Below are positions 3,184-25,570 of a stretch of DNA of 64,000 nt, one piece after another. This DNA comes from a virus. Its lineage: Duplodnaviria > Heunggongvirae > Uroviricota > Caudoviricetes. The stretch lies in the IMG/VR virus record IMGVR_UViG_3300034355_001008. The stretch is one strand, 5' to 3'. Every line of letters starts with the position of its first letter. Positions within the stretch are counted from its first letter, which is position 1. The position numbers and the translations under genes are program-made. A model generated the notes under the pieces. The model was not told where the DNA came from, made no database searches, and saw only the letters and a list, made by a program, of their open reading frames with translations.

Positions 3184-3188
3184 ATACT

Positions 3189-3265: not shown

Positions 3266-3287
3266 ATTAATTTAATAAGAGAAAGTT

Positions 3288-3470: not shown

Positions 3471-3473
3471 TTC

Positions 3474-3502: not shown

Positions 3503-3515
3503 AGTAATGTAATTT

Positions 3516-3592: not shown

Positions 3593-3598
3593 AATATT

Positions 3599-3672
3599 GC
3601 GGGATTAGTTTAATGGTAGAACAGCAGATTTCCAATCTCCTAGTGAGGGTTCGATTCCCTTATCCCGCTCCA
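3599..3672 (+). tRNA. tRNA-Gly (anticodon UCC)
   Basis: Acceptor GCGGGAT/ATCCCGC, anticodon stem GCAGA/TCTCC with one C-C mismatch and loop TTTCCAA, T arm GAGGG-TTCGATT-CCCTT, encoded CCA. Confidence 0.65.
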
Positions 3673-6997: not shown

Positions 6998-7399
6998 ATG
7001 AGTGACATTTTTAATGGATATGGCGTTGAGGTATTTATTGATGAGAATAATTTTTTAAAAATTAAAGAAACGTTATCTAGAATTGGCGTATTATCTAAAA
7101 AAGATAAAACTTTATATCAATCATGTCATATCTTACATAAACAAGGTAGATATGTAATTATCCATTTTAAAGAATTATTTGGTCTGGATAACAAATCTCA
7201 TGAAATTAGTGAAAATGATATTGCTAGAAGAAATACTATTGTAAACCTTTTAAGGGATTGGGAACTATTGGAAATTAGACATGAAGATGAATGTAAATCT
7301 CCATTAGTTCCAATTAGTCAAATTAAAATTTTATCGTATAAAGAAAAAGATGAATATAATTTGGTTAGTAAATATAACATCGGCAAAGTTAAAAAATAA
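6998..7399 (+). CDS. regA: RegA translational repressor of early genes
   Basis: FLKIKETLSRIGVLSKKDKTLYQSCHILHKQGRYVIIHFKE aligns with T4 RegA (FLKVKETLTRMGIANNKDKVLYQSCHILQKKGLYYIVHFKE). Confidence 0.85.
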   Translation: MSDIFNGYGVEVFIDENNFLKIKETLSRIGVLSKKDKTLYQSCHILHKQGRYVIIHFKELFGLDNKSHEISENDIARRNTIVNLLRDWELLEIRHEDECKSPLVPISQIKILSYKEKDEYNLVSKYNIGKVKK

Positions 7400-7662
7400 T
7401 GCCTGGAGTTACTAGAAAAGGTACGGATTCAGCTGGAGGTAAATTAGCTGCTGGATCCGGTGATGTATTTGTTAATGGAGCTGCAGCTGTTAGAAAAGGT
7501 GATGCAGTTACAGGTCATGGGGTCGCCCCTCATGATTCCCCAACTATGGCTGCTGGTTCTGGTTCAGTATTTGTTAATGGCATTGCAGTTTGTCGAGCTG
7601 GCGATGCCGCTACTTGTGGCCATTCAGCGTCAGGGTCGGGAGACGTTTTTGCTGGTGGCTAA
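7399..7662 (+). CDS. PAAR-repeat protein (tail-spike tip, gp5.4-like)
   Basis: 87 aa, Gly/Ala-rich with repeated VFVNGxAAVRxGDAxT(C)GH units typical of PAAR domains. Start overlaps the regA stop (TAATG). Locally GC-rich. Confidence 0.7.
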   Translation: MPGVTRKGTDSAGGKLAAGSGDVFVNGAAAVRKGDAVTGHGVAPHDSPTMAAGSGSVFVNGIAVCRAGDAATCGHSASGSGDVFAGG

Positions 7663-8172: not shown

Positions 8173-8190
8173 TTAGGTTTTATAACTATA

Positions 8191-8224
8191 GGGGCAATCA
8201 GAAATGGTTGCCCCTTTTTTTTTT
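8191..8224 (+). terminator. rho-independent terminator (GGGGCAA…TTGCCCC + T10)
   Basis: 7-bp perfect stem followed by ten T residues. Confidence 0.8.
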
Positions 8225-11896: not shown

Positions 11897-11909
11897 AGGA
11901 AAATAAAAT

Positions 11910-12992
11910 ATGAGTTTGTTAGATAAAATTAAAAAGAATAGTACAATTAAAGAAACTTCGGTTCTTTCTAAATCAAAATTCTTTGTTGATAAAGATATGA
12001 TTCAAACGCCAATTCCAATTATTAACGTGGCGTTATCAGGATCTTTAGATGGTGGGTTTACTCCTGGATTTACAATGTGGGCTGGTCCAAGTAAACATTT
12101 TAAAACTGCATTTAGTTTATTAATGGCTAAATCGTATATGGATAAATATCCAGAATCAGTTTTGTTATTTTATGATTCAGAGTTTGGTACGCCGCAATCA
12201 TATTTCCAATCTTTTGGTATTGATATGGATAGAGTGATCCACACTCCTCTTAAAAACGTCGAAGAATTGAAGTTTGATATAATGAATCAGATTGATAATA
12301 TTGTCCGTGGAGATCGAATTCTTATCCTTATAGACTCTATTGGTAATTTGGCTAGTAAGAAAGAAGTTGATGATGCCTTAGATGGTAAATCAACAGCTGA
12401 TATGACTAGAGCTAAACAGTTAAAATCTTTGTTTAGAATGATTACACCTCATTTAATGTTAAAAGATATTCCATTGGTAGCTGTTAATCATACCTATAAA
12501 ACTATGGAACTTTATGCAAAAGATGTTGTTGGTGGCGGTACTGGTTCATATTATGCAGCTGATAACATTTATATTTTAGGTCGTCAGCAAGAAAAAGAAG
12601 GAACTGAAGTAATTGGATATAACTTTATTATTAACGTTGAGAAATCTCGATATACCAAAGAGAAATCTAAAATTCCAGTTTGCGTAAGTTTTAAAGGTGG
12701 TATTAGTAAATGGTCTGGTTTAATTGATTTAGCATTAGAATCTGGTATCGTTATTAAACCGAGTAATGGTTGGTATCAAAAAGTTAATTTAGCAACTGGT
12801 GAACTTTTAGAGAAAAAATATCGATTAAAAGAAACTGAATCTGCTGAATTTTGGGATCCTATTTTGGAAAGCACTCAATTTAAAGCATTTATTGAAAGTA
12901 AATATAAAGTATCTCATGGAGATATTTTTGGTAATGATATTGATGAAGATATTGATGCTGTATTTGCTGATGAGGAATTGGAAGATGCATAG
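11910..12992 (+). CDS. uvsX: UvsX recombinase (RecA-like)
   Basis: Collinear with T4 UvsX: KFF…IPIINVALSG, Walker A AGPSKHFKT, LFYDSEFG, ILILIDSIGNLASKKE, TRAKQLKSLFRMITP, AVNHTYKT. Confidence 0.9.
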   Translation: MSLLDKIKKNSTIKETSVLSKSKFFVDKDMIQTPIPIINVALSGSLDGGFTPGFTMWAGPSKHFKTAFSLLMAKSYMDKYPESVLLFYDSEFGTPQSYFQSFGIDMDRVIHTPLKNVEELKFDIMNQIDNIVRGDRILILIDSIGNLASKKEVDDALDGKSTADMTRAKQLKSLFRMITPHLMLKDIPLVAVNHTYKTMELYAKDVVGGGTGSYYAADNIYILGRQQEKEGTEVIGYNFIINVEKSRYTKEKSKIPVCVSFKGGISKWSGLIDLALESGIVIKPSNGWYQKVNLATGELLEKKYRLKETESAEFWDPILESTQFKAFIESKYKVSHGDIFGNDIDEDIDAVFADEELEDA

Positions 12993-13188
12993 ATTAACTA
13001 GAATTGATATTAATGATATTTTTTATGTAACGCTTATTATTAGTTTTCTTTGTTGGACAATAGCATCTTGGTTTACTCATATTATAGTTTGTATTAACAA
13101 TAAAGAATGGTTATTTTTAATTGCCGGAGCCATTATGGCTCCAATTGCGTGGGTTCATGGAACTGGCGTTTGGTTTAATTTCTGGTAG
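12985..13188 (+). CDS. small membrane protein (2 TM helices), hypothetical
   Basis: Internal ATG at 12985 overlaps the uvsX stop. Hydrophobic segments FYVTLIISFLCWTIASWF and LFLIAGAIMAPIAWV. Confidence 0.35.
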   Translation: MHRLTRIDINDIFYVTLIISFLCWTIASWFTHIIVCINNKEWLFLIAGAIMAPIAWVHGTGVWFNFW

Positions 13189-13197
13189 GAGAAAAAA

Positions 13198-13536
13198 ATG
13201 GTTGACGAAAGAACCGTTGTAGAGTATAATTTCATTGAGGTCAATGGAGCAAATGGATTAAAATTAGAATCCGGTGAATTTGACGGGGTTATCGTAACAT
13301 TAAGCGATCTTAGTGTTCAAGATGATGGTACAGATAATCCAGATGGATCTGCTGTGTTAAGTTTTAATTATGATGTCGTTTATGACGCCGAAAAACCAAA
13401 AGAATTATTTGAAACTATAGATTTTAAAAATACTATAGGTGATATATTAATGAAAATTCTTACTGACAGTATTAAAGAAGCAGGAGAAAATATTGAATCT
13501 GAATACGCTGATTTTGAAGAACCTTCATTACTCTGA
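13198..13536 (+). CDS. acidic hypothetical protein
   Basis: 112-aa ORF, very acidic, with RBS GGAGAA. Overlaps the gp41 ORF by 44 nt. Confidence 0.45.
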   Translation: MVDERTVVEYNFIEVNGANGLKLESGEFDGVIVTLSDLSVQDDGTDNPDGSAVLSFNYDVVYDAEKPKELFETIDFKNTIGDILMKILTDSIKEAGENIESEYADFEEPSLL

Positions 13537-14890
13537 AGAATTTACGAGAAAAGTATTACCTTTTTTAAGGGCAGATTATTTTAATGATAGAAATGAACGA
13601 ACAATTTTTAACGAGATTAGTTCGTTCATTACAAATTATGGAAATATTCCAACATATGAAGCTCTTATTATTCAGTTAAATGAAAAAGCAGTTTCCGAAG
13701 AAGAACATAAAGAAACTCTTACATTATTAAATGAATTGCATGAAGCTAAATCTGAAACTGTAGATTTAGAATGGTTAGTTGATAAAACGGAAACTTTTTG
13801 TCAAGACCAAGCAATCTTTAATGCTGTTAGAGAATCTATTACAATTCTTGATGGAAAACATAAAGATTTATCTAAGGGAAGTATTCCTACATTATTATCT
13901 GAAGCATTATCAATATCATTTGATTCAAGCGTTGGTCACGACTATTTGGGTGATGCCGATAGTCGTTATGAATATTATCATAGAACTGAGGAAAAAGTTC
14001 CTTTTAGTTTAAATTATTTTAATTTAATAACAAATGGCGGCTTACCGAAGAAAACTCTAAATGTTATCTTAGCTCCACCCCATGGCGGCAAAAGTTTAAT
14101 GATGTGTAATTTCGCAGCTGATTTTCAGTTATCAGGTAAAAATGTTTTATACATAACTTGTGAAATGGCTGAAGAAGAAATCGCAAAACGTATTGATGCT
14201 AATTTGCTTAGAATATCTATGGATGATTTAATGCAATTGGATAAATCTTCTTTTGATAAAAAGATTAATTATGTTAAATCAAAAACGATTGGTAAGTTAT
14301 TTGTCAAAGAATACCCAACAGCTGCAGCTAATGTAAATCATTTTAGAACTTTATTAAATGAATTGCGTTTAAAAAAGAATTTCGTTCCAGATGTAGTTTT
14401 TATTGATTATTTAAATATTTGTGCTAGTTCTAGAATGAAGATGTCTGGTAGTATCAACACTTATACATATATTCAAGCTATTGCGCAAGAATTGCGGGGC
14501 TTCGCTCAAGAGTTTAGTATTCCTGTAGTAACAGCAACTCAGACAACTAGAAGCGGATCTCAAAGTAGTGATGTTGATATGAGTGATGTATCTGAATCAT
14601 TTGGTGTTCCTGCTATTGCTGATTTTATGTGTGCAATTATTAACAGCGAAGAACTATATGATTTAAATCAAATAATGATTAAACAATTAAAAAATCGATA
14701 TAGAGATTTAAATTTAAATAAACGTTTTGTTGTTGGCGTTGATAGAGCTAAGATGAAATTATTTGATGTTGAACAATCAGCGCAGGAAGGTATTACTGAT
14801 GCTGGAAGCATGGATCCATCTGAGTCATATAAATCTATGCAAAAACAAAATAAATTTGAAAAGAAATCATTTGATGGGTTTAAAGTATAA
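13493..14890 (+). CDS. 41: replicative DNA helicase gp41 (DnaB-like); apparent TTG start
   Basis: Walker A LAPPHGGKSL, ITCEMAEEEIAKRIDAN, FVPDVVFIDYLNIC. Collinear with T4 gp41 from residue ~4 (ILKNLHY vs ILSHLIF). No in-frame ATG near the start, so TTG 13493 is used. Confidence 0.85.
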   Translation: MNLNTLILKNLHYSEEFTRKVLPFLRADYFNDRNERTIFNEISSFITNYGNIPTYEALIIQLNEKAVSEEEHKETLTLLNELHEAKSETVDLEWLVDKTETFCQDQAIFNAVRESITILDGKHKDLSKGSIPTLLSEALSISFDSSVGHDYLGDADSRYEYYHRTEEKVPFSLNYFNLITNGGLPKKTLNVILAPPHGGKSLMMCNFAADFQLSGKNVLYITCEMAEEEIAKRIDANLLRISMDDLMQLDKSSFDKKINYVKSKTIGKLFVKEYPTAAANVNHFRTLLNELRLKKNFVPDVVFIDYLNICASSRMKMSGSINTYTYIQAIAQELRGFAQEFSIPVVTATQTTRSGSQSSDVDMSDVSESFGVPAIADFMCAIINSEELYDLNQIMIKQLKNRYRDLNLNKRFVVGVDRAKMKLFDVEQSAQEGITDAGSMDPSESYKSMQKQNKFEKKSFDGFKV

Positions 14891-15603
14891 TGAAAAGCGC
14901 GATAGTAATAATTCCTACAACAGGAGCTGACACTCTTATACAAGCAGTAGAGAGTATTTCTAAACAAACATACAAGGACGTTACTGCTCTTATTGTAGTT
15001 GATGGAAAAGAATTTGCTTCTAAAGTAAGAAAGATGTTTTTTGGTAGAGGTTTTGGTATTCCTATTCAACTAGTTTATCTAGAAGAAAACGTTGGTGCTG
15101 GTGGTTTTTATGGCCAACGAATTTATGCCTCTTTTTCTCATCTAGTAAACAAAGATTATTTGTTTTTCTTAGATCAAGATAATTGGTATGAACCTACTCA
15201 TATTGAATCTATGATTTCAACTATTGAATCAACTGGATCTCAATGGGCATATAGTTTGCGTAATATATATTCTCCTGCTGGAGAGTATTTGTTGCAAGAT
15301 AATTGCGAAAGTTTAGGAAAATGGTCTGCTTGGACTAATACAAATATGGTTGATACTAATTGTTATTGTATTCCAAAAGAAATTGCTATTAAAATTGCTT
15401 CATTCTGGCATTCCGGTTGGGGTGAAGATAGAGTAATTTTTAATGTATTGCATAATAATTTTAATAATTATGAATGTTCTGGTGAATATACAATTAATTA
15501 TCGATTGGGCGGTAACGAGGGTTCTGTGACAAAAGAATTTTTTGAGCAGGGTAATAAAATAATGAATGAAACATATAATGGGAAATATCCATGGAAGAAG
15601 TAA
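14890..15603 (+). CDS. glycosyltransferase family 2 (GT-A, DxD)
   Basis: AIVIIPTTG…ALIVVDGKE and FLDQD (DxD). Start overlaps the gp41 stop (TAATG). Confidence 0.6.
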   Translation: MKSAIVIIPTTGADTLIQAVESISKQTYKDVTALIVVDGKEFASKVRKMFFGRGFGIPIQLVYLEENVGAGGFYGQRIYASFSHLVNKDYLFFLDQDNWYEPTHIESMISTIESTGSQWAYSLRNIYSPAGEYLLQDNCESLGKWSAWTNTNMVDTNCYCIPKEIAIKIASFWHSGWGEDRVIFNVLHNNFNNYECSGEYTINYRLGGNEGSVTKEFFEQGNKIMNETYNGKYPWKK

Positions 15604-16283
15604 CTGTAGAATTAAGATGTATGTATTGGCAAAATGGTGAATATTTAATTGAATCGCATAAAAAAGTAACTGAACATTTAGGGTTACAGGTTCAATATGA
15701 TTTAACAACAATTCCTCATGGTCAATGGATGAATGAGGTTTTAGAAAATAGCACAGCTGACGTTGTTGGTTTTTTTGATAATGATTGCGTTCCCTTAAAT
15801 GCAGGTATTGTAGAATATGCTATTGCATATGCAACTGCAACAAAATCATTTATTGGAACAGCTCAAGCATCAAATCATATTGCTCCAAGAGCGCATATTT
15901 TTGCTGCTCCGTGCTTTTTCTTTATATATAGAGATACTTGGGTTAAAATGGGTAAACCATCTTTCTTAGAAAATTCAAGAAGCGATGTTGCTGAAGAAGT
16001 TTCATACGTTGCTGAAGATTTTATGGTTCCATATAAAGCATTGTATCCAACAAATTTTGAGCGTGAGCCGGTTGAAGGTGTTTGGAGATTGGGTAATTTT
16101 GGATATTACGGTATTGGAACAGTATTTGCTAATTCTGTATATCATTTATTTCAGGGAAGATATAAACAAAACGCTGACTTATTTAAATTAAGATGCGATG
16201 AAATAGTAGATGGAACGTTTTCTACTAATGGTATGTTTAATTCTATTGAAGTTTATTCTGGAAAAATTTGTAATTATTCGTAA
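15591..16283 (+). CDS. hypothetical protein, possible glycosyltransferase-like (DND motif)
   Basis: VVGFFDNDCVPLNAG resembles a GT-A DxD loop. Weak. Confidence 0.35.
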   Translation: MEEVTVELRCMYWQNGEYLIESHKKVTEHLGLQVQYDLTTIPHGQWMNEVLENSTADVVGFFDNDCVPLNAGIVEYAIAYATATKSFIGTAQASNHIAPRAHIFAAPCFFFIYRDTWVKMGKPSFLENSRSDVAEEVSYVAEDFMVPYKALYPTNFEREPVEGVWRLGNFGYYGIGTVFANSVYHLFQGRYKQNADLFKLRCDEIVDGTFSTNGMFNSIEVYSGKICNYS

Positions 16284-16298
16284 TTTGGGGGTTTTAAA

Positions 16299-17330
16299 AT
16301 GGCAAAAAGAGTATTAATAACAGGCGGAGCAGGTTTTATTGCACATCATGTTCTATATCATTTCCTAACAAATACTGACTGGGAAATTGTTACGTTAGAC
16401 AGATTAGATTTATCTGGTAATTTAAATAGATTAGCTGACGTTATTGCTAGAAATCCGGAATTTAAAAGTAGAATTAAATTCGTATTTCATGATTTAAAAG
16501 CTGAAATTTCAACATTAACACAGAATTTTATTGGTGAAATAAATTATATCCTACATTTAGCTGCAGGAAGTCATGTAGATCGATCTATTGAATTTCCTAT
16601 GGAATTTGTAATGGATAATGTTGTTGGTACTACAAATATCCTAGAGTTCGCTAGAAAACATAAAAGTTTAGAAAGATTTATCTATTTTTCTACTGATGAA
16701 ATTTTTGGTGTCGCCCCAGAGGGCGTTGATTATAAAGAACGCGATAGATATAATTCAACAAATCCATATTCAGCTTCTAAAGCTGCAGGCGAAGAATTGT
16801 GTGTAGCATATGAAAATACTTATGGAACTCCGATCTTTGTTACTCACACAATGAATGTGTTTGGTGAGCGTCAACATCCAGAAAAGTTTATTCCATTATG
16901 TATCCGTAGAGCTAGAGATGGAGATACAGTTTTTATTCATTCTAATGCTGATAAAACTCAAGCTGGTAGCCGCCATTATATTCATGCTAGTGATGTTGCT
17001 GATGCTATGTTATTCTTATTAAATTTAGATAATCCTTCTATCTACGAACCTGATTATGGTAATGCTAAATGCCCTAAATTTAATGTTGTTGGTAAAGAAG
17101 AAATTGATAATTTATCTTTAGCCAAAATGATTGCTGCTGCAGCGGGAAAAGAATTAAATTATGAAATGATTGATTTCCATACTTCTAGACCTGGACACGA
17201 TTTACGTTATGCTTTATCTGGTGAATATATGAAATCTCTAGGTTGGGAACCAAAAGTATCTCTTCAAGAACGTATTTCAGAAGTCGTTCATTGGTCATTA
17301 GATAATCAAGAATGGATTGAGTTAGCCTAA
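16299..17330 (+). CDS. NAD-dependent sugar-nucleotide 4,6-dehydratase/epimerase (SDR family, RfbB-like)
   Basis: LITGGAGFIAHH Rossmann motif and YSASKAAGE (YxxxK catalytic motif). 343 aa. Confidence 0.7.
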   Translation: MAKRVLITGGAGFIAHHVLYHFLTNTDWEIVTLDRLDLSGNLNRLADVIARNPEFKSRIKFVFHDLKAEISTLTQNFIGEINYILHLAAGSHVDRSIEFPMEFVMDNVVGTTNILEFARKHKSLERFIYFSTDEIFGVAPEGVDYKERDRYNSTNPYSASKAAGEELCVAYENTYGTPIFVTHTMNVFGERQHPEKFIPLCIRRARDGDTVFIHSNADKTQAGSRHYIHASDVADAMLFLLNLDNPSIYEPDYGNAKCPKFNVVGKEEIDNLSLAKMIAAAAGKELNYEMIDFHTSRPGHDLRYALSGEYMKSLGWEPKVSLQERISEVVHWSLDNQEWIELA

Positions 17331-18112
17331 TGAAAAAATATTTGTATTATCACATTTACCTTACTGATGATACTGGAACTTGGTCTAGTTTATTTATAGA
17401 CCAAGTTTATTTAACTATAAATTCCGGTTTATATGATGAATTGGAAAAAATGTATGTTAATTGTATCGGTTCACCGGAACAAATAAATTTATTTGTTGGA
17501 TTATGTACTCAGTTTAATAAAATTCAAGTATTAAATTGTTGTGAAACTAAATTAAATGATCAACAATTATCTTCTAATTATTTGGATAATCATAATCCTC
17601 ATGACGAAACTATAACAATGAAAGAATTACAGGCTCATGCTAAACGCGAAGATGCTTATTTTCTTTATCTTCATTCTAAAGGAGTTACTGCTACAAGTAG
17701 AATGAAACAAGCAGGCGATTTTAGAAGATATGTTAATTATTATAATTGGAGAAAGTTTTTAGAATGGGGTTGCGTTGAAAACTGGAAACTTTGTATTAAA
17801 GCATTAGAAACACATTCTTGCGCTGGAGTTAATTTGTGCGAATGGCCAACTCCTCATTATTCAGGAACAATTTGGTGGTCTAAATCTTCGCATATAAATA
17901 AACTCCCTGATATAATGGAAAATGATTGGTGGATAAATTTAATTAATTCTACTGATTTACGAACTTGGAATTCTATTAGGCTAAAAGCTGAAATGTGGAT
18001 AGGTTCAGTTTGTAATAGCGATTTCTATACAATAAAAAATGCTCCCTTTATGCCGCCAATTTCAAGTTTAGGTGAAACATACTTTCCTAGATCAATGTAC
18101 GAAAAGGATTAA
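17330..18112 (+). CDS. hypothetical protein in sugar operon (possible transferase)
   Basis: 260-aa ORF in an ATGA overlap with the upstream gene. FLYLHSKGVTAT motif of unknown family. Confidence 0.4.
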   Translation: MKKYLYYHIYLTDDTGTWSSLFIDQVYLTINSGLYDELEKMYVNCIGSPEQINLFVGLCTQFNKIQVLNCCETKLNDQQLSSNYLDNHNPHDETITMKELQAHAKREDAYFLYLHSKGVTATSRMKQAGDFRRYVNYYNWRKFLEWGCVENWKLCIKALETHSCAGVNLCEWPTPHYSGTIWWSKSSHINKLPDIMENDWWINLINSTDLRTWNSIRLKAEMWIGSVCNSDFYTIKNAPFMPPISSLGETYFPRSMYEKD

Positions 18113-18115
18113 ATA

Positions 18116-18865
18116 ATGCCAAAAATATCAATAATTGCCCCCATTCATACTTCTTCTATTAGAGAAGGTTATAGTGAAAGATTTTTAGTAGAATTTTTTG
18201 CTTCATTATCGTATCAACATTTTAAAGATTTCGATATTGTTGTTGCTGACCATAGTGTTGGTGATAATTTAAAAGCTATTTGTGACACTTTTTCTCATGT
18301 ATTAGATATTAAATACTATAAAAACGATTATATGCGAGGTTCTACTGCAGCCAATGTTAATTTTGGTATGAAAAAAGCTACTGGAGAAATATGTAAAATT
18401 TTATTTATGGATGATTTTTTTGTTGAACAAACTGGGTTGCAGGAAACTTGGGATGCGTTTCAAGCAAATCCAGATAAAAAGTGGTTGATTGCTGGCTTTG
18501 TTAATTGTAATGAAGATAGAACTGAATTTTTTAATGCTAGGCTACCTAGATTTGATAATGCATATGTTAACGGAGATAATTCAACGGGAAATCCTTCTAC
18601 TTATGCAGTTCGTAGAGAATTTGCTATTGATATGGATGAAAATTTACGATTCGTAGTTGATGGAGAATACTTTGTTAGATCGTACTGGCATTATGGTCCT
18701 CCAATTATGATTGAAAAAGTTGTTCATTGTTTTAGATATCACGAAGATGCTAATTATTTAAAACCTGAATTACAAGCTCTTGAAACAGAAGAACGTCAAT
18801 ATTCAGTAGAAAAATTTAGAAAAATGGATGAGGAAAGAGCTAATGCGAATCGCGTTCCACAGTAA
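18116..18865 (+). CDS. glycosyltransferase family 2-like
   Basis: ISIIAPIHTSS…DIVVADHS…LFMDDFF gives a GT-A-like layout. Confidence 0.5.
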   Translation: MPKISIIAPIHTSSIREGYSERFLVEFFASLSYQHFKDFDIVVADHSVGDNLKAICDTFSHVLDIKYYKNDYMRGSTAANVNFGMKKATGEICKILFMDDFFVEQTGLQETWDAFQANPDKKWLIAGFVNCNEDRTEFFNARLPRFDNAYVNGDNSTGNPSTYAVRREFAIDMDENLRFVVDGEYFVRSYWHYGPPIMIEKVVHCFRYHEDANYLKPELQALETEERQYSVEKFRKMDEERANANRVPQ

Positions 18866-19832
18866 TCAATTAGGTGAAAGAGGTACTGAAATTTGTCTCT
18901 ACAAATATGCAAAATATAATAGAGAAATTTTGGGTAATGAATCTATTATTATTTCCTCTGGATTAAAACCAACTCCATCTTTAAATCGATTTAAAGATTT
19001 TTCAACAATCTTATATGAAGAAGAATATAGAGATGGAGCTAAAAATAATAATGTTAGAACTGCTATAGAAAAAATTTGCGATAAGCAAAAGATTGATGCG
19101 TTCTATGCAATTAAAGCTGGAGAAAATGATGGTATAATGCCTACTAATGCTAAATCGTTGGCTCATTGTGTGTTTAGAATGCACGATCCTCATGCTGACG
19201 TTTATTCTGGGGTATGTAAATATATTTCAGAAAAATTTGGAGCAACTCATCCTTATGTTCATCATATTCTAGAAAAAGAAGCTTCAGATATGCATGATAC
19301 ATTTAGAGAAGAATTGGGTATCCCTAAAGATGCATTAGTTCTTGGGCGTCATGGTGGTAGAGAAACTTTTAACCTACAATTTGTTTATCCTGCAATTAAA
19401 AAAGCGTTAGAGGATCGTAAAGACCTCTGGTTCGTCTTTTTAAATACAGATAAGTTTATTGATCACGAACGAGTTATTCATCTTCCATGGACGATGGACG
19501 AGCAAGTAAAAGCGAAGTTTGTTAATACTTGTGATGCTATGATGCATGCAAGAGCTGATGGGGAAATATTTAGTTTATCTGTAGCTGAATTTACTATTAG
19601 AAATAAACCTGTTATTTCTTGGTTACCAAAAGAAATACCGCATTTTTATGATTATGGTCATATTTACTTAATGCAAAATAAAGCAATTTATTATGATACT
19701 GCCCAAGATCTATATAATATATTATGTTTCTTTGATAGAAATGAGATAGCTAAAATAGATTGGGATGGTTATACTGCTAATTATACTCCAGAAATCGTAA
19801 TGCAAGAATTTAAGGATGTTTATTTAACATGA
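18828..19832 (+). CDS. glycosyltransferase, GT-B fold (GT1/GT4-like C-terminal half)
   Basis: C-terminal LVLGRHGGRETFN…VFLNTDKF…CDAMMHARADGEIFSLSVAEF resembles the Rossmann donor-binding half of GT4 enzymes. Confidence 0.4.
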   Translation: MRKELMRIAFHSNQLGERGTEICLYKYAKYNREILGNESIIISSGLKPTPSLNRFKDFSTILYEEEYRDGAKNNNVRTAIEKICDKQKIDAFYAIKAGENDGIMPTNAKSLAHCVFRMHDPHADVYSGVCKYISEKFGATHPYVHHILEKEASDMHDTFREELGIPKDALVLGRHGGRETFNLQFVYPAIKKALEDRKDLWFVFLNTDKFIDHERVIHLPWTMDEQVKAKFVNTCDAMMHARADGEIFSLSVAEFTIRNKPVISWLPKEIPHFYDYGHIYLMQNKAIYYDTAQDLYNILCFFDRNEIAKIDWDGYTANYTPEIVMQEFKDVYLT

Positions 19833-20776
19833 TAGTAACGAATTGTCCATTAAGGGTTTCTTTATTCGGGGGTTCTACTGATAATCCTCTTTTTATTGAG
19901 AGATATGGATATGGCTCAGTAATAAGTTTTACTTGTGATTTAAAAACCTATGTTACAATTCATGAAGATAAAGTTGGTTATAACAAACATTTACATAAAT
20001 ATGTTCTTAATTATTCTATTAGAGAAGAAGAATCTTTTGCTAAAGATATAAAAAATGAAGTTGTTAGAGTTGTATTAGAATATTTTAATATAGATCCTCT
20101 AACAATTTCATTAACCAGCGATGTTTACTCACAAGGGAGTGGATTGGCATCTTCGTCAGCTTATATTATTTCTTTAATTAAAGCGATATCTATTAAAAAT
20201 GAATTACATTTAACTGATACTGAAATTTGTTTAATTGCTCTTGAATTAGAACAAAAGTTTAATCCGCATTGTGGATTACAAGATCCATTTGGTTGCGGGG
20301 TTGGCGGATTTAAGCGTATTGAATTTGAGAGAAATAATAAGGTTAGATATACATTCCTCCCAACAAAAATATTTGATATTTATGATATGCATTTAGTTTT
20401 TACAGGGGTTAATCGAAATTCAAAAAACGTATTAAAAGATGTTACTAATAATATAGAAAAATCTCGTGGACTAATTCAAATTGTTGAGTTGGCTCAACAA
20501 GCATTATATAATGAAGAATATGAGTTATTTTTGCAATATGTTTCTGATAGCTGGAAACTTAAAAAGGAAACAAGTAATTTAATTACCGAGAATGTAACTG
20601 TAGCTGAAATCGATCAAATATTATTAGATAACCCGACAGTATTAGCTCATAAATTATGCGGTGCAGGAAATGGCGGATTTTATCTTGTATTTTCAAAGAA
20701 AAACTGCTTGACTTTATCGTTACCTTATATTAAAATAAATGTAAGTTCATCAGGTGTAGAAGGTATAAAAATATGA
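19829..20776 (+). CDS. GHMP-family sugar kinase (D-glycero-D-manno-heptose 7-phosphate kinase HddA-like)
   Basis: PLRVSLFGGSTD and SSGLASSSA GHMP motifs. 315 aa. Confidence 0.7.
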   Translation: MIVTNCPLRVSLFGGSTDNPLFIERYGYGSVISFTCDLKTYVTIHEDKVGYNKHLHKYVLNYSIREEESFAKDIKNEVVRVVLEYFNIDPLTISLTSDVYSQGSGLASSSAYIISLIKAISIKNELHLTDTEICLIALELEQKFNPHCGLQDPFGCGVGGFKRIEFERNNKVRYTFLPTKIFDIYDMHLVFTGVNRNSKNVLKDVTNNIEKSRGLIQIVELAQQALYNEEYELFLQYVSDSWKLKKETSNLITENVTVAEIDQILLDNPTVLAHKLCGAGNGGFYLVFSKKNCLTLSLPYIKINVSSSGVEGIKI

Positions 20777-21288
20777 GTTTAATAAAAGATTGTATAGATA
20801 TTTTATCTAAAATGGAAGATTCCGAAGAATACAATAAATTTAAAAGCGTTTTTAAGCAAAACAATAAATTTATTATTATCGGTAATGGAGGAAGCAATTC
20901 AGTTGCTTCTCATATCTCGCAAGATTATGTTAAAAAGTGTCATAAACATTCTTTAACGTTTTCCGATCCATCTATGTTAACGTGTTTTATTAACGATTAC
21001 GGTATGGAAAATGCGTATTTAGAATTTGTAAAAGCATACAGAACTTATGATACATTTATTATTTTAATAAGTTCTTCTGGCGAATCAGAAAATATATTAA
21101 AGGTAATTAAATATTGCGAAGCAAATGATTACCCTTATGGAATATTAACTGGATTTGCAAAAAGTAACAGTGCTAGAGTTTTGGGTCGTTTAGGTCGTAA
21201 TGCCAAATTTGATTATCACGTTAATAGTAAAGATTATGGCGTAGTTGAGTGCGTACACCAAATATTTTTGCATGGAGTTGTTGAATGA
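20773..21288 (+). CDS. SIS-domain sugar-phosphate isomerase (phosphoheptose isomerase GmhA-like)
   Basis: FIIIGNGGSNSVASHISQD…DTFIILISSSGESENIL SIS motifs. 171 aa. Confidence 0.65.
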   Translation: MSLIKDCIDILSKMEDSEEYNKFKSVFKQNNKFIIIGNGGSNSVASHISQDYVKKCHKHSLTFSDPSMLTCFINDYGMENAYLEFVKAYRTYDTFIILISSSGESENILKVIKYCEANDYPYGILTGFAKSNSARVLGRLGRNAKFDYHVNSKDYGVVECVHQIFLHGVVE

Positions 21289-22013
21289 TTTATTGTTTTG
21301 ATTTAGACGGAACGATTTGTTCCTCTGTTGAAAATAGCGAATATTATAATTCTATTCCAGATAAAACTGTAGTTAATGAGATTAACCGTTTATATGATTC
21401 TGGCCATGAAATTATTATTATGACTGCAAGAGGTTGCGTTAGTGGAATTGATCATTATGATTTAACTGAAGACCAATTAAGAAAATGGGGTATAAAACAT
21501 CATAAATTGCTTATGGGTATTAAACCTCATGCTCATATTTTTATTGATGATAAAGGGGTTTCCATTGATGATTGGAAAAACTCAATTCCAAATAAATTTG
21601 GAGTATTAGCTGGAGCGTTTGATATTATTCATCCTGGATATGTTAGAATGTTTAAAGAAGCTAAATTACATTGCACTAATTTAACAGTATTATTAAATAT
21701 TTCTCCAGCAAATAAAATTACCCCAGTACAAACAGTAGAAGAACGTATTGAAATATTATCTGCAATTAGATATATTGATAATGTTATCTGTTATTCTACA
21801 GAAGAAGAATTGTATAATTTACTAGAGATAAATAATTTTGACATTCGTTTTTTGGGTTCTGATTATAAAGATAAAAGTTTCACTGGTAAAGATTTAGAAT
21901 TACCTGTTTATTTTATAGAACGCGATCATAGTTATTCTGCTACTGCATTGAAACAAAAAATATTTGATTCAATAAATTTATATTTTAAACAAACAATAAA
22001 TGGTGATGTATGA
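21285..22013 (+). CDS. bifunctional HAD-like phosphatase / HIGH-motif sugar-phosphate nucleotidyltransferase (GmhB-like + RfaE-domain-II-like)
   Basis: N-terminus MIYCFDLDGTIC is a HAD motif I. C-terminal GAFDIIHPGYVRMF is a cytidylyltransferase-like (H/T)xGH motif, as in HldE domain II. Confidence 0.55.
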   Translation: MIYCFDLDGTICSSVENSEYYNSIPDKTVVNEINRLYDSGHEIIIMTARGCVSGIDHYDLTEDQLRKWGIKHHKLLMGIKPHAHIFIDDKGVSIDDWKNSIPNKFGVLAGAFDIIHPGYVRMFKEAKLHCTNLTVLLNISPANKITPVQTVEERIEILSAIRYIDNVICYSTEEELYNLLEINNFDIRFLGSDYKDKSFTGKDLELPVYFIERDHSYSATALKQKIFDSINLYFKQTINGDV

Positions 22014-22915
22014 AAGTATTGGTTACTGGTGGTTGCGGGTTTATTGGAAGTCATTTAATTGATTTGTTAGTTGATTCTGGTTATACTGTTGTTAATGTTG
22101 ATGATTTATCAGCAGATAATGATCAATTTTATTTTAATGAGAATATTAAAAATTATCATTTTGATATTTGTAATACTAAGCAATTAATATCAGTTAGTAG
22201 AGGGTGTGAATTTATATTTCATTTAGCAGCAGAATCGCGATTAGGTGCTTCTATTGCTAATCCAAGAAAAGCAATTGATTCTAACATTAAAGGCGTTGTT
22301 TCGGTATTAGAAGCAGCAAAAGCAAATAAGATTAAAGGTATTGTTTTCTCTTCAACATCTTCAATATATGGATTAAATACAAATTTTCCGCTAAAAGAAA
22401 CTGAGCGAGAAGATTGTTTAAATGCGTATGCATCAACTAAGTATGCAGCAGAATTATTTTTGAGAAACTATTATGAAATCTACGGAATTAAATCAGTTAT
22501 TCTTCGTTATTTTAATGTTTATGGTGAACGTTCTCCCAAATCTGGTCAATATGCGCTAGTATTAGGTATCTTTGAAAAATTATTAAAAGATGGTAAACCA
22601 TTAACAGTTACTGGTGATGGAACCCAAGAGCGAGATTTTATACATGTAAAAGATATTGCTCAGGCTAATATACGATGTATTGATAATTTTGATACAAATC
22701 CAGATATGTGGAAAGCTCAAGTATTTAATATTGGATATGGAGAAACAAAAACTATTAATGAAATTGCTAATACTCTATCAGATAGTATTGTTTATATTAA
22801 AAAACCAGCTGGCGAAGCATTAAATAATTTATCAGATAATACTAAATTTAAATTAGCAACAAATTGGGTTCCAACTATAAATGTGATTGACTGGATTAAA
22901 GAAAAACTATTATAA
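22010..22915 (+). CDS. NAD-dependent nucleotide-sugar epimerase (SDR; HldD/GalE-like)
   Basis: VLVTGGCGFIGSHL and YASTKYAAE (YxxxK). 301 aa. Confidence 0.7.
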   Translation: MKVLVTGGCGFIGSHLIDLLVDSGYTVVNVDDLSADNDQFYFNENIKNYHFDICNTKQLISVSRGCEFIFHLAAESRLGASIANPRKAIDSNIKGVVSVLEAAKANKIKGIVFSSTSSIYGLNTNFPLKETEREDCLNAYASTKYAAELFLRNYYEIYGIKSVILRYFNVYGERSPKSGQYALVLGIFEKLLKDGKPLTVTGDGTQERDFIHVKDIAQANIRCIDNFDTNPDMWKAQVFNIGYGETKTINEIANTLSDSIVYIKKPAGEALNNLSDNTKFKLATNWVPTINVIDWIKEKLL

Positions 22916-22923
22916 TATAAATA
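22916..22923 (+). promoter_or_regulatory. T4 late-promoter-like TATAAATA (overlapping a TATAAT)
   Basis: Exact TATAAATA 38 nt upstream of the ligase-like gene. Confidence 0.3.
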
Positions 22924-22960: not shown

Positions 22961-24133
22961 ATGCTAAGTTTTAAAGATTTTCTTGTTGAGAACGAGGAAG
23001 AAGGTGCTAAATTAAAGCACATTAAACATCCAGAAGATAGAGTTTTTGAAGGTTCAAATGGATATGCTCATGCTAAAGGTGCATTGCATCATGCTCATGA
23101 TGCAATTAAATCTGGAGAACATAGCACTAACCTTACTATGAAATACGATGGATCTCCTTCCATCGTATATGGTCATCATCCAGAGAATGGTAAATTCTTT
23201 GTAGCCAGTAAATCTGCATTTAATAAAAATCCAAAAATAAATTATACTCACGAAGATATTGAGCAAAACCATGGCCATGCTCCTGGATTAGTTGAGAAGT
23301 TAAAAGATTCGTTGGATCATTTACATAAAATTACTCCAAAAAAGGGTGTATATCAAGGCGATTTAATGTTTAGTGGAGATGATAAGAAACATAATGATAA
23401 TGGATCCGTATCATTTACTCCAAATACAATTAAATATACTGCTCACGGCGAAGAAGCAGATAAAGTTAAAAAAGCAAAATTAGGTGTTGTTACTCATACA
23501 CAGTATCATGGAAATACCTTATCTTCTATGAAAGCTGATCCTCATCCAGATTTACATAATTTTAAATCTCATTCAGATGTTTGGAGTAAAACTCCAGAAC
23601 ACGATACCAAAAACGTTCATTATAGCGAAGCTGATCAAGCTAAATTTCAAAAACATATGGATGCTGCTGATAAAATTCATAAAACGCATAAAGATACTAT
23701 GTATGATGCTACAGCTCCTCATGGTGGTGACAGCGGTCATTTAGCAACATATATTAATCATACGGTTAGAACTGGCGAAAAACCTTCTGCAGATGGATTG
23801 CAGAATCATATAGTAGGTAAATATGAAAAACAAATTGATAAGTTAAAAAGTGATGCAGGTAAAGCTAGAAAACATACTGAACTGACTAGTCATCTATCTC
23901 ATATTGCTGGTAATTCTGATCATTATAATCGTTTATTAAAAATGCATGGCCATTTACAGTCGGCTAAAAATATTTTAACCAAAACATTAAATCAACATGA
24001 AGGTGGATTAGAACACCATATTGGTGACAAAAGAACAAATCCGGAAGGATTTGTTATTCATCATAATGGAGAACCAACTAAACTTGTTAATAGAGAAGAA
24101 TTTTCTAAAGCTAATTTGTTAAAGGTACGTTAA
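22961..24133 (+). CDS. ATP-dependent polynucleotide ligase-like nucleotidyltransferase (Rnl2/RNA-ligase-like), His-rich
   Basis: Motif I LTMKYDGSPS (KxDG), motif III-like VYQGDLMFSG, motif V-like NTIKYTAHG. Unusually His-rich throughout its 390 aa. Confidence 0.45.
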   Translation: MLSFKDFLVENEEEGAKLKHIKHPEDRVFEGSNGYAHAKGALHHAHDAIKSGEHSTNLTMKYDGSPSIVYGHHPENGKFFVASKSAFNKNPKINYTHEDIEQNHGHAPGLVEKLKDSLDHLHKITPKKGVYQGDLMFSGDDKKHNDNGSVSFTPNTIKYTAHGEEADKVKKAKLGVVTHTQYHGNTLSSMKADPHPDLHNFKSHSDVWSKTPEHDTKNVHYSEADQAKFQKHMDAADKIHKTHKDTMYDATAPHGGDSGHLATYINHTVRTGEKPSADGLQNHIVGKYEKQIDKLKSDAGKARKHTELTSHLSHIAGNSDHYNRLLKMHGHLQSAKNILTKTLNQHEGGLEHHIGDKRTNPEGFVIHHNGEPTKLVNREEFSKANLLKVR

Positions 24134-24756
24134 TGAGCACTAAAAATCCTGTTGTTACTGCTTTTGGTAGAATGAATCCACCTACAACTGGGCACTTACA
24201 GTTAATTAATGCTGTTCGTTCTACTGCAGAAAAAGAAAATGCTGATCATGATATTATCGCTTCAGGTAGTCATGATCCAAAGAAAAATCCATTAACTTCA
24301 GAACACAAATTAAAACATTTATCTAGATATTCTCCTGGAACTAATTTTTCTGTAGCTGATTCTAAATCTCCAACATTATTACATCATTTATCTAAATTAC
24401 ACGATAAAGGTCATGATCATTTAATTTATGTTGCGGGTTCGGATCGCACAAAAGATATGGAAGAATTAATACATAAATATAATGGAGTGCCATCTAAACA
24501 TGGATATTATAATTTTAAAAAGATAGAAGTGCGTTCAGCTGGTCATAGAGATCCAAATGCAGAAGGAACTGCTGGTATGTCTGGAACTAAAATGCGAGAA
24601 TTTGCTAAAAACAATGATTTTCATTCATTTAGACAAGGAGTTCCATCTCACGTTTCAGATGATCATGCAAAAGAATTGATGAGTGATGTTAAATCTGGTA
24701 TGAATGTTCATGAATCATATATTCGTGGATTTTTAAACAAAATAAGACTATTTTAA
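24133..24756 (+). CDS. HIGH-motif nucleotidyltransferase (NMN/NaMN adenylyltransferase- or cytidylyltransferase-like)
   Basis: TAFGRMNPPTTGHLQLI resembles GRFQPxHxGH of NMNAT/PPAT-class enzymes. 207 aa. Confidence 0.45.
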   Translation: MSTKNPVVTAFGRMNPPTTGHLQLINAVRSTAEKENADHDIIASGSHDPKKNPLTSEHKLKHLSRYSPGTNFSVADSKSPTLLHHLSKLHDKGHDHLIYVAGSDRTKDMEELIHKYNGVPSKHGYYNFKKIEVRSAGHRDPNAEGTAGMSGTKMREFAKNNDFHSFRQGVPSHVSDDHAKELMSDVKSGMNVHESYIRGFLNKIRLF

Positions 24757-24757
24757 A

Positions 24758-25570
24758 ATGCAAAATAAACAAGCAATTTTTATTATCGGATCTCCTGGAT
24801 CCGGAAAGGATGTCGTAATTAGAGATATTGCATCTAATTACGGTATTGTAGAATTTACGTCAACTCAAATTGATGAGATGTTATATAATGACGCAGTATT
24901 TAAACGAGCTAAATCGGAAAAACAAGATTCTCTTTTAGAAAGATATTCTATACTCGTTACTGGAAATTCATTTGATTTAGGGTTTGTTATAACTAAAGAT
25001 ATATTAGAAGCAATTGGTTATACAACGCATTTAATTGTTGTTGAGGCTGATTTAGGAATTGCTGTTGAAAGATTAAAAGATAGAAAAAATTTAAAAGAAT
25101 CATTGGATAGAATTAGTGTTGGAAATGCAAATAGACAAGCAATTATTAGTTTATTTAACTCTTATATTACTGTGGATAATTCAAAATCATTGGATTTAAC
25201 TGAATCAAGAGAATTTATTTATGATATTTTAGAAGATTTAACATTTAAATCCGATTTGCGTTTAGAAGAAATTGTAAAAATTAATTTGAAGAAAAAGGTT
25301 AATAAAATTGTTCCATTAAAACTTCCTGCAGATACTTCTGATACGAGAAGTATGACTCCAGGGACGTGGTCTGTTTATAATGGAGTTGCTGAATCAGTTG
25401 AATCACCTAATTATGATATTTCCCCTATAGCTACCGGTCCTATGCAAAGTACCGCATCTTCAACAGTTAGTATGCAATCTGATCAAGATAAAGAAAATAC
25501 CAGAAAAGTGTTGAATAAAATTAAAAAAATAAATTTCAGAAAGGTAATCCCAAATGCCATCGAAAAATAA
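24758..25570 (+). CDS. P-loop kinase-like protein (polynucleotide kinase / zeta-toxin-like)
   Basis: N-terminal Walker A FIIGSPGSGKDVV (compare T4 Pnk GCPGSGKST). No HAD phosphatase domain seen. Confidence 0.45.
   Translation: MQNKQAIFIIGSPGSGKDVVIRDIASNYGIVEFTSTQIDEMLYNDAVFKRAKSEKQDSLLERYSILVTGNSFDLGFVITKDILEAIGYTTHLIVVEADLGIAVERLKDRKNLKESLDRISVGNANRQAIISLFNSYITVDNSKSLDLTESREFIYDILEDLTFKSDLRLEEIVKINLKKKVNKIVPLKLPADTSDTRSMTPGTWSVYNGVAESVESPNYDISPIATGPMQSTASSTVSMQSDQDKENTRKVLNKIKKINFRKVIPNAIEK

Follow-up and report, generated by a model that had tools for sequence, protein, structure and literature searches.

Here we have analysed a 64,000-nucleotide (nt) stretch of the viral record IMGVR_UViG_3300034355_001008 (the window), in which ten plus-strand genes (g1-g10, 14890-22915) follow directly on the gene for the replicative helicase gp41. 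We read this sugar island, tentatively and with a confidence that stops short of even, as one allele of a strain-variable glycan locus whose acceptor is most likely lipid-linked and of the envelope type. Many marine T4-like phages give over several percent of their genome to sugar islands, whose acceptor (envelope, virion or DNA) has been in question since 2005. An earlier, sequence-only reading of the window had offered DNA, virion proteins and the host envelope as acceptors, and all three options still stand. The locus amounts to a natural experiment, in that near-identical strains differ only in the cassette between gp41 and the DUF6267 gene, in genomes that also carry a TET/JBP dioxygenase with a TET-associated glycosyltransferase (TAGT); the allelic slot and this unlinked pair together make a good system for resolving what the island does.

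An allelic glycan locus between gp41 and DUF6267

The slot between gp41 and DUF6267 is allelic: contigs whose gp41 is 97-99% and whose UvsX is 100% identical carry either the cassette of the window (allele A, 14890-22915) or a second one (allele B, contigs L132-L139), and alleles A, B and C share flanks at 96-100% identity. Allele B holds counterparts of g1 and g2 at 66% identity (g1', g2'), HtrL_YibB, a HAD_2-NTP_transferase fusion, a TylF-type sugar O-methyltransferase, a 34%-related GT-B protein and g10 at 97% identity. More distant relatives carry allele C (L182), with a GT2 glycosyltransferase (GT), WDGH, a g2 homologue, a DegT aminotransferase and a further GT2, and allele D (L010/L011), with DruA, GT2, a methyltransferase and DUF8361. 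Homologues of g1, 57-66% identical, open alleles B, C and other variants of the slot; in allele D a Pfam GT2 protein of the 237-amino-acid (aa) length of g1 stands after two other genes. Genes like g1 and g2 thus persist at the 5' end of the slot, and g10 persists at the 3' end of allele B. Alleles that lack the heptose genes described below retain transferases. With their methyl, amino and deoxy sugars and many transferases, the alleles resemble a serotype locus in content. A single slot with at least three other sugar cassettes among relatives is, on the contigs compared, a new observation.

Synonymous divergence (dS) along allele A, taken against a second strain (contig L002), is mosaic: 0.007 in g4, 0.12-0.15 in g5-g6, about 0.3 in g1-g3 and g7, and 0.60 in g8, with 0.07-0.11 in the flanks. 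This mosaic suggests recombination between co-circulating strains.

Genes of the island

Families were assigned through Pfam, NCBIfam and PDB matches, with AlphaFold2 (AF2) models and Foldseek added for selected proteins (Table 1). All ten island genes are real and under purifying selection, the ratio of nonsynonymous to synonymous divergence (dN/dS) against L002 being at most 0.13 throughout and about 0.03-0.13 in the nine genes that have diverged enough for it to be measured (the nucleotide sequence of g4 is 99.9% identical); values for gp41, g8 and g10 were computed on protein-guided alignments because of indels.

Glycosyltransferases dominate the first part of the island. Homologues of g2 about 50% identical to it lie in Acinetobacter sp. 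MB5, between rmlBDAC with GT genes and aspS, a position that we take to be the lipooligosaccharide (LOS) outer-core locus; another, also about 50% identical, adjoins a GT25 gene in a Pasteurellaceae chromosome. Homologues this close in bacterial LOS-core loci are, as far as these matches go, a new observation. The best PDB matches of g3 are RmlB enzymes (2e-48), those of g4 in Foldseek are GtrB, ArnC and TarI (E about 1e-4 to 1e-3, TM about 0.4), and the best NCBIfam matches of g5, both weak, are PglI and HpsN. Although its open reading frame (ORF) could open at 18828, we prefer 18843 as the start of g6 because its homologues are 329 aa long. A phmmer search of g6 against PDB sequences gave no useful match; its closest folds are GT4 enzymes acting on lipids, small molecules or oligosaccharides, its fold neighbours include the chlorovirus glycosyltransferase 3oy2, and T4 beta-glucosyltransferase (b-GT) lies outside the top 60 fold matches. 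Because g6 travels with heptose genes, in the window, in contigs L007 and L009 and in Synechococcus phage S-SKS1, it is a candidate heptosyltransferase.

Genes g7-g10 form a heptose module. The best PDB matches of g7 are the heptose kinases 4n3o and 3k85, and WcbL, and it is 59% identical to the 'D,D-heptose 7-phosphate kinase' of phage SynMITS9220M01, whose annotated phosphoheptose isomerase is syntenic with g8. The two-part protein g9 matches PDB 9iqw (1e-11), TagD 1coz (6e-8), rfaE_dom_II (51 bits) and TIGR01689, and alignment of its nucleotidyltransferase half reveals invariant HPGY and RxHx[YW]SxT motifs. Motif position 5 of g9 is aromatic, not the Arg of the 'STTR5' rule (PMC11573728), and the nucleotide is therefore not predictable. 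At family level, activated heptose and multi-transferase glycan biosynthesis are solidly indicated; all equivalog scores lie under the curated cut-offs, and we therefore infer the substrates.

The self-contained sugar-nucleotide pathway with several glycosyltransferases proposed by the sequence-only reading is confirmed by the family assignments, as are its GT2 proteins (g1, g5), 4,6-dehydratase, GHMP kinase, SIS isomerase, HAD/nucleotidyltransferase fusion and SDR epimerase. What falls away is the identity of g10 as HldD, since both its scores and its best PDB matches (6dnt and 4zrm, GalE-like) favour GalE. The proposed activated-heptose pathway is consistent with the GmhA-like isomerase and the HddA-like kinase, both scoring far under the cut-offs, and with the HAD/nucleotidyltransferase, but the set matches neither canonical pathway. 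As regards the ADP-L-glycero-beta-D-manno-heptose route to the LPS inner core (GmhA, HldE, GmhB, HldD and GT9 heptosyltransferases), Pfam found no PfkB domain, and so no PfkB/ribokinase-type heptose kinase, in the ten island proteins, and no Glyco_transf_9 match (the GT9 family of WaaC/WaaF) in the island, where the epimerase is GalE-like rather than HldD. No island protein belongs to PF00483, the family of HddC-type guanylyltransferases, the nucleotidyltransferase being CTP_transf_like; nor is the HAD part of g9 a GmhB-type phosphatase, being of the EcbF/BcbF, 9iqw or 1xpj type. By these matches the enzyme set fits neither canonical heptose route, combining an HddA-type kinase with a TagD/HldC-fold nucleotidyltransferase and a different HAD subgroup.

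Relatives of the module in phages and cells

Syntenic copies of g7-g10, with 42-63% aa identity, recur in SynMITS9220M01, several IMG/VR contigs and metagenome contigs of 63 kb and 272 kb, and we regard the module as a mobile cassette. In SynMITS9220M01 it is part of a sugar island of 22 kb that lies some 20 kb off gp41, and adjacency to the helicase is therefore not conserved. A megablast of the region against phage records returned only a 166-bp match.

The module is also found in cells. In a Prochlorococcus single-cell genome (contig L019) its flanks hold ilvC, cobD, clpP and the genes of a porin and a binding protein, and it adjoins GT2 and GT4 genes and a TPR protein; in P. marinus contig L021 g7, g8 and the first part of g9 are followed by the contig end, and the neighbours, read by eye, are a carbamoyltransferase-like gene and multi-transmembrane (TM) proteins. 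The occurrence of the four-gene module in Prochlorococcus chromosomes is, by these homologies, a new observation, and it indicates that cells use the module for a non-DNA glycan. TET, TAGT and ThyA-type hydroxymethylase are all absent from the complete genome of SynMITS9220M01, and no TET or TAGT was seen in the roughly 20-kb stretches examined around the chromosomal copies. The HddA-type kinase with a HAD-nucleotidyltransferase fusion, shared with Prochlorococcus, would constitute an uncharacterised route to activated heptose.

The module's genes in SynMITS9220M01 were listed as heptose genes in 2020 (PMC7378029), and nucleoside diphosphate (NDP)-heptose enzymes in viruses were reported in 2024 with no role assigned (PMC11461863, PMC11573728). 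These reports, together with the module's draw on sedoheptulose-7-phosphate, lend something to the idea that soluble NDP-heptose is itself the end product, as a sink or regulator of pentose-phosphate carbon or as a small-molecule effector, with the transferases secondary. In S-SKS1 a transaldolase gene and the g6 homologue adjoin the phosphoheptose isomerase, and other pentose-phosphate genes occur in marine phages, for example talC, zwf and gnd in SynMITS9220M01. Yet the module always sits among several conserved transferases under strong purifying selection, and the heptose-less alleles keep theirs; we consider a soluble end product very improbable.

The acceptor of the glycan

If the acceptor belongs to the envelope, the route, whose substrates, step order, acceptor and benefit to the phage we infer, would run as follows. 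The isomerase g8 would turn sedoheptulose-7-phosphate into heptose-7-phosphate, g7 would phosphorylate it at C1, the HAD half of g9 would strip the 7-phosphate and the nucleotidyltransferase half yield NDP-heptose, and g10 would epimerise the NDP-sugar, while g3 would form a 4-keto-6-deoxy NDP-sugar. Five soluble transferases (g1, g2, g4, g5, g6) would then assemble a heptose-containing oligosaccharide in the cytoplasm on a lipid-linked precursor from which the infected cell makes an envelope glycan, of lipopolysaccharide (LPS)/LOS or O-chain type. Host machinery would export the glycan, and on the changed cell surface further phages, or the phage's own progeny, would bind less. We favour this acceptor because cells and TET-less phages use the same module, because g2 and HtrL_YibB point to LOS/LPS-core loci, because the allele contents resemble serotype loci, and because the DNA-tailoring variability of this lineage stays beside TET. 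Marine phage sugar islands are also usually read as host-surface modification (PMC1079782, PMC7029224, PMC12801897).

Several observations weigh against an envelope acceptor. The literature just cited offers hypotheses and no experiment. Hydrophobic segments that could form a TM helix are absent from all ten proteins, no Pfam family of an initiating phosphoglycosyltransferase, a flippase or ABC transporter, or a polymerase matched among g1-g10, and a complete Wzx/Wzy or ABC locus was not seen there. With no initiating phosphoglycosyltransferase, flippase, polymerase, ligase or membrane protein encoded, export would depend wholly on the host. Cyanobacterial LPS is without heptose and 3-deoxy-D-manno-octulosonate (Kdo) according to a review (PMC4390846), and Pfam finds no GT9 heptosyltransferase in the island. 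Fold and charge fail to separate DNA transferases from envelope transferases: the isoelectric points of the island's transferases (4.95-6.07) do not discriminate between acceptors, T4 b-GT being basic and alpha-glucosyltransferase (a-GT) having a pI of 6.1. The genome has a DNA-hydroxylating and DNA-glycosylating pair, TET and TAGT, and Caulobacter phage Cr30 carries TET, a TAGT-like gene and a heptose cluster. Furthermore, DNA-sugar cassettes share the logic of SIS isomerase, kinase, 1xpj-like HAD, nucleotidyltransferase and GT4-like GT-B (PMC13326640; Pyle et al.).

The last points lead to DNA as the acceptor. On lineage contigs the TET/JBP and TAGT genes stand between uvsY and gp23, which encodes the major capsid protein, at about 8-10.5 kb upstream of window position 1 and thus some 24 kb ahead of the island; these contigs have the gene order of the window, and one of the two that carry the form of the pair closest to the window's own strain (L101, L111) also has its exact first ORF (L101). 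The contigs carry island allele A or B with a near-identical TAGT. The TAGT family, PF20691, takes in the base-J glucosyltransferase. It also includes the T2/T6 enzyme that adds a second glucose (PMC13216743). The phage thus probably hydroxylates and glycosylates its own DNA, with a base-J-like or glycosyl-5-hydroxymethyl-pyrimidine product predicted, and thymine is the likely TET substrate because no C5-methyltransferase is seen.

Could the island extend such a DNA glycan? TET/JBP would hydroxylate a 5-methylpyrimidine, TAGT would add the first sugar, and the island would supply NDP-heptose and the elongating transferases, an arrangement that we rate a serious but doubtful contender. Doubtful too is its fuller, two-locus form, in which the heptose, methyl-sugar and amino-sugar alleles of the gp41 slot would be strain-specific DNA 'glycotypes' selected by host nucleases or glycosylases. 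Precedent exists for heptosyl-5-hydroxymethylcytosine (5hmC) and for di- and trisaccharide DNA glycans, with a HAD-kinase fusion, cytidylyltransferase and GT-B (Pyle et al.), as it does for an arabinosylation cassette of like enzyme logic (PMC13326640) and for the combination of TET, TAGT-like and heptose genes in Cr30. Early/middle transcription with the replication genes and the solubility of all island proteins would also suit DNA, and T-even relatives exchange DNA sugar genes at syntenic sites (PMC13390438). If the acceptor were DNA, base-J-like chemistry would extend to abundant ocean phages, and one marine phage species would carry differing DNA 'glycotypes' in natural populations.

Distance is the first difficulty: in the clusters published so far, no more than a few genes separate the tailoring genes from TET (PMC8256090), whereas the island lies 24 kb from it. 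The slot beside TET is itself variable (L111, L123, L129 and L112, around 11380-15000), holding TAGT alone; a homing-endonuclease-like ORF, TAGT and a 480-aa ORF; a 446-aa ORF; or a five-ORF set. The set of the L112 type shows, by eye, resemblance to an Ntn-amidotransferase, a low-molecular-weight phosphatase and a P-loop kinase, and the 446-aa ORF of L129 has no PDB sequence match; this slot has the look of a DNA-tailoring cassette that varies. The heptose module, for its part, is found in the TET- and TAGT-free settings of Prochlorococcus and SynMITS9220M01 described above, and five or more transferases, an O-methyltransferase and an aminotransferase exceed any known DNA glycan.

The sequence-only reading had singled out a dCMP/dUMP hydroxymethylase and likeness to the T4 glucosyltransferases as worth looking for, but in tblastn searches of the window, of the whole SynMITS9220M01 genome and of the other loci compared, neither a ThyA-type hydroxymethylase nor a-gt or b-gt came up, and b-GT was absent from the top 60 fold matches of g6; it is the TET/JBP-TAGT pair upstream that keeps DNA alive as an acceptor. 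No C5-methyltransferase appeared in Pfam scans of window ORFs or of about 20 kb upstream, no TET in Pfam scans of the non-overlapping, non-nested window ORFs of at least 90 aa, and no similarity to a DNA-acting transferase (a-GT, b-GT, TAGT/JGT) in the cluster or elsewhere in the window, TAGT standing beside TET instead. The dCMP deaminase, phage-type ThyX and deoxynucleoside monophosphate (dNMP) kinase of the window fit canonical dTTP supply. We had considered the dNMP kinase and a weak ThyX match as signs of unusual nucleotides and rejected them, both being ordinary phage-type enzymes. We know of no DNA modification in phages with such a dNMP kinase and ThyX. Nor would a heptose on DNA be new, as had been supposed, since mono- and di-heptosyl-5hmC have been reconstituted from a metavirome cluster, with DNA transferases that look like BshA and MshA (bioRxiv 10.1101/2023.12.21.572611).

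The lack of export genes would suit a protein acceptor, with soluble transferases adding sugar to capsid proteins or giant lectin-like fibres while these are still unassembled in the cytoplasm and the alleles acting as particle glycotypes. Glycosylated virions have precedents in chloroviruses, mimiviruses and some mycobacteriophages. By fold, the neighbours of g6 include the chlorovirus enzyme 3oy2, the genes of the window include those for YadA-head fibres and for two very large proteins with LamG repeats, and pelagimyophage transferase genes often lie among tail-fibre genes (PMC7029224). The island, however, stands in the replication module behind sigma-70-type promoters and not with the late genes, it has no sequence link to any structural gene, and the host-chromosome and LOS-locus homologues suggest lipid-linked acceptors. 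To our knowledge, no glycosylated virion of a T4-like marine phage has been described. We therefore judge modification of the virion unlikely and retain the envelope glycan as our tentative choice.

Layout and transcription

Ten plus-strand ORFs fill 14890-22915 right behind gp41, and the largest gap is 15 nt (g2-g3). One-base TAATG overlaps join the gp41 TAA stop to the g1 ATG at 14890 and g3 to g4 at 17330, and four-base ATGA overlaps occur at 19829, 20773, 21285 and 22010; g1 and g2 overlap by 13 nt, g4 and g5 are 3 nt apart, and g5 and g6 overlap by 38 or 23 nt according to the g6 start. The packed array that the sequence-only reading had described is thus exactly as it was drawn, except that the overlap at 17330 is TAATG and not ATGA. 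Its description of the island as translationally fused to the helicase holds insofar as stop and start codons overlap, but there is no protein fusion, and relatives with other genes in the gp41 slot show the same overlapping style of junction.

A scan for sigma-70 promoters (at least 11 of 12 consensus positions) gave nine plus-strand matches in the window against 2.65 +/- 1.7 expected, and one on the minus strand. No plus-strand match falls between 13231 and 22886, that is, between the promoter just 5' of gp41 and the one at the end of g10 (Table 1), and terminator-like hairpins inside the island are weak, the single strong terminator of the window being at 8190-8215. The earlier view that the island lacks an internal promoter or terminator and is probably co-transcribed with gp41 is borne out to this extent. 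The promoter at 13202-13230 is the likely start of a transcript spanning gp41 and the island, and a single transcript from an early/middle-type promoter is plausible on these signals. The late-type motif TATAAATA at the right boundary is not enriched across the window (15 found against 18.7 expected).

Table 1. Features of the island, its borders and the upstream DNA-modification pair. Positions refer to the window unless a contig is named.
Feature	Position	Strand	Assignment	Matches and properties
Promoter	13202..13230	+	Near-consensus promoter just 5' of gp41	TTGACG-17-TATAAT
gp41	13493..14890	+	Replicative helicase	Pfam DnaB_C; 54-56% identity to cyanomyovirus gp41
g1	14890-15603	+	Soluble GT2 glycosyltransferase	Pfam Glycos_transf_2 1.4e-10; no TM helix; dN/dS 0.10
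g2	15591-16283	+	Probable GT-A-type glycosyltransferase	No Pfam match; DND motif; 174 homologues
g3	16299-17330	+	SDR, NDP-hexose (dTDP-glucose-type) 4,6-dehydratase, RmlB-like	TIGR01181 240 bits (cut-off 365); dN/dS 0.03
g4	17330-18112	+	DUF8361 (PF27674); weak GT-A / nucleotide-diphospho-sugar transferase-like fold	Precomputed Pfam; AF2 predicted local distance difference test (pLDDT) 90.9
g5	18116-18865	+	Soluble GT2 glycosyltransferase	Pfam Glycos_transf_2 1.8e-10; dN/dS 0.025
g6	18828 or (more likely) 18843-19832	+	GT4-type (retaining, EX7E motif) GT-B glycosyltransferase	Model pLDDT 93.8; no Pfam match
g7	19829-20776	+	GHMP sugar kinase, HddA-like (heptose-7-phosphate 1-kinase)	NF049969 94 bits (cut-off 600)
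g8	20773-21288	+	SIS-domain phosphoheptose isomerase, GmhA-like	SIS_2; best family TIGR00441 54.5 bits (cut-off 209)
g9	21285-22013	+	Small HAD phosphatase (EcbF/BcbF or 1xpj type, DxDGT) fused to cytidylyltransferase-fold sugar-phosphate nucleotidyltransferase	
g10	22010-22915	+	SDR NDP-sugar epimerase, GalE-like; last of the four-gene module	GalE 159 bits vs heptose_epim 110 bits (cut-off 275)
Right boundary	22887..22923	+	Promoter (22887-22916, g10 end) and T4-late-type motif ahead of the DUF6267 gene	TTGACT-18-TATAAT; TATAAATA
DUF6267	22961-24133		Conserved backbone gene	
TET_JBP	L101 136-1518; L111 10001-12201 (coordinates of the pair)	L101 -; L111 +	TET_JBP dioxygenase, 460 aa	83.6 bits; HxD and distal His present
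TAGT	L101, L111; 9 nt after TET		TET-associated glycosyltransferase, 269 aa	PF20691 45.2 bits

Phage identity and neighbouring genes

The window has a T4-like backbone of gp45, DsbA, gp44, gp62, RegA, Hsp20, dCMP deaminase, gp43, UvsX and gp41, and the island is followed by DUF6267, primase, ThyX, MazG, NrdBA, SegE and then huge fibres, at a G+C content of about 31%. Its polymerase is 45% identical to those of cyanomyoviruses. Contigs with exact window proteins carry peptide deformylase just upstream (L101 9091-9702) and curli CsgG/CsgF just downstream (L104 3446-4685), the CsgG being 46% identical to that of Pelagibacter phage HTVC008M and 44% to that of OM43 phage Melnitz; curli and peptide deformylase are stated hallmarks of pelagimyophages (PMC7029224). 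An identity as a cyanophage, suggested by the best matches of gp41 and polymerase and by MazG and Hsp20, was dropped once these genes had been found. By its gene content this is probably a T4-like marine phage of the kind represented by HTVC008M and Melnitz, so far uncultured, and at such a G+C content its host is probably a streamlined marine heterotroph such as SAR11 and not a cyanobacterium.

Mobile elements have been active around the replication genes, to judge from two cases: in L006/L137 uvsX is a divergent allele (57% identical) between flanks of 97-98% identity, and in the relative L011 (439-2577) an ORF interrupts it, leaving separate RecA_N and UvsX_C parts, with an HNH gene after gp41. 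The sole minus-strand ORF of the window's replication module (6245-6886) has no Pfam match; given its 30% identity to the ORF that separates TET from TAGT in L123, it is possibly a homing endonuclease. At 36059-36481 a GIY-YIG endonuclease of the SegE type lies near the end point of one 126-kb contig of the lineage.

At the left end of the window, two weak glycosyltransferase-like ORFs, both under cut-off (292-1086, Anp1-like; 1460-2281, Glyco_tranf_2_4), precede a T4 gp1-type dNMP kinase (2286-2909) and are nearer to TET-TAGT than is the main island. Eight tRNA genes (Thr, Pro, Asn, His, Glu, Trp, Met, Gly) form two groups (1209-1369 and 2918-3672), with sigma-70-type promoters at 1105-1133, before the first, and at 3474-3502, within the second and ahead of Met and Gly. 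An 87-aa PAAR-motif ORF lies between regA and hsp20 at about 7399-7662 (L101 17108-17371), as called in the precomputed Pfam of the matching contig.

Behind DUF6267, at 24133-25570, the backbone continues with a gene that resembles cytidylyltransferases (and, weakly, NMN adenylyltransferase) and one that resembles P-loop kinases, both of which appear to stand outside the sugar island. The two seem, compared without direct alignment, to equal a single larger gene in relatives, such as a 488-aa protein with CTP_transf_like and Zeta_toxin matches (L010 12710-14176) and the 408-aa 'cytidyltransferase' SynMITS9220M01_155. Among the fibre genes, the giant proteins encoded at 43890-49208 (1772 aa) and 51906-57701 (1931 aa) contain lectin-like Laminin_G_3 domains, 8 in the first and 6 in the second, and are each followed by a tail-fibre assembly chaperone gene (49219-49659 and 57709-58191); YadA-head repeat proteins are encoded at 40882-43509, 58205-59758 and 59776-61539.

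Comparison with known systems

From the T4 b- and a-glucosyltransferases the island differs on each count: sequence similarity is absent, b-GT falls outside the top 60 folds, the genomic slot is another, and no dCMP hydroxymethylase was found here. The positional analogy with T4 drawn in the sequence-only reading is loose, in that the island does sit beside replication genes, but T4 has b-gt between gene 43 and uvsX, where here nothing stands between polymerase and uvsX and the island is downstream of gp41, and the module of SynMITS9220M01 lies some 20 kb from its gp41.

Comparable in chemistry is the bacterial GDP-D-glycero-alpha-D-manno-heptose pathway (GmhA-HddA-GmhB-HddC), reportedly described by Kneidinger in 2001 for S-layer, capsule and O-antigen glycans. 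It serves surface glycans rather than the LPS inner core. The module resembles it in its GmhA-like isomerase and its HddA-like GHMP kinase, both scoring under the cut-offs, and in the dephosphorylation and nucleotide activation predicted to follow; it differs in its HAD subgroup and in the fusion of that domain to a TagD/HldC-fold nucleotidyltransferase, with no separate HddC-type NTP_transferase.

Among DNA-modifying systems, the arabinosyl-5-hydroxycytosine cassette of RB69, DLP3 and HY126 (PMC13326640) likewise has a SIS isomerase, a kinase, a 1xpj-like HAD, a nucleotidyltransferase and a GT4-like GT-B, but its isomerase is a KdsD (arabinose-5-phosphate) enzyme and it has a ThyA-like dCMP hydroxylase, whereas the isomerase here is GmhA-like and no ThyA-like gene was found. 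The metavirome clusters for DNA hypermodification (C5-methyltransferase, TET/5mYOX and GT; PMC8256090; bioRxiv 10.1101/2023.12.21.572611, with the heptosyl-5hmC 'contig 53') resemble this lineage in coming from marine phages with TET/JBP and, here by prediction, heptose; both also have a GT-A of the JGT/TAGT type, a HAD domain, a cytidylyltransferase and a GT-B resembling BshA and MshA. Here, by comparison, a C5-methyltransferase did not turn up, some 24 kb separate TET and TAGT from the island, the kinase is GHMP and not APH-like, and transferases are far more numerous. The TET/JBP and TAGT pair with its own variable tailoring slot, outside the window, appears from these contigs to be a new observation.

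SynMITS9220M01 (MT408532; PMC7378029) is a marine T4-like phage with a syntenic kinase, isomerase, HAD/nucleotidyltransferase and epimerase (45-59% aa identity), likewise among glycosyltransferases. Its island, about 20 kb from gp41, comes after nrdAB, tRNAs and zwf/gnd and does not have g1-g6 in common with ours; the phage itself has psbA and other cyanophage markers and is without TET or TAGT.

The sugar or 'LPS' islands of marine T4-like phages are already well documented (PMC1079782, PMC12801897, PMC7029224), from the 24-gene 'LPS' island of P-SSM2 in 2005 (PMC1079782) to the 22-gene sugar island of S-SCSM2R with its 13 transferases (PMC12801897). The present island belongs with them, having several transferases and NDP-sugar enzymes in a T4-like marine backbone, and it behaves as a plastic region, with alleles A-D between conserved genes and homologues in Prochlorococcus and in LOS loci. 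Like the 'LPS' or cell-wall clusters of P-SSM2, S-SCSM1, S-SCSM2R and S-SKS1 and the corresponding pelagimyophage regions, it gathers many transferases with NDP-sugar epimerases and dehydratases in a hypervariable region of a marine T4-like genome; set against them, it occupies the slot between gp41 and DUF6267, is allelic among near-identical strains and carries a complete predicted route of heptose activation.

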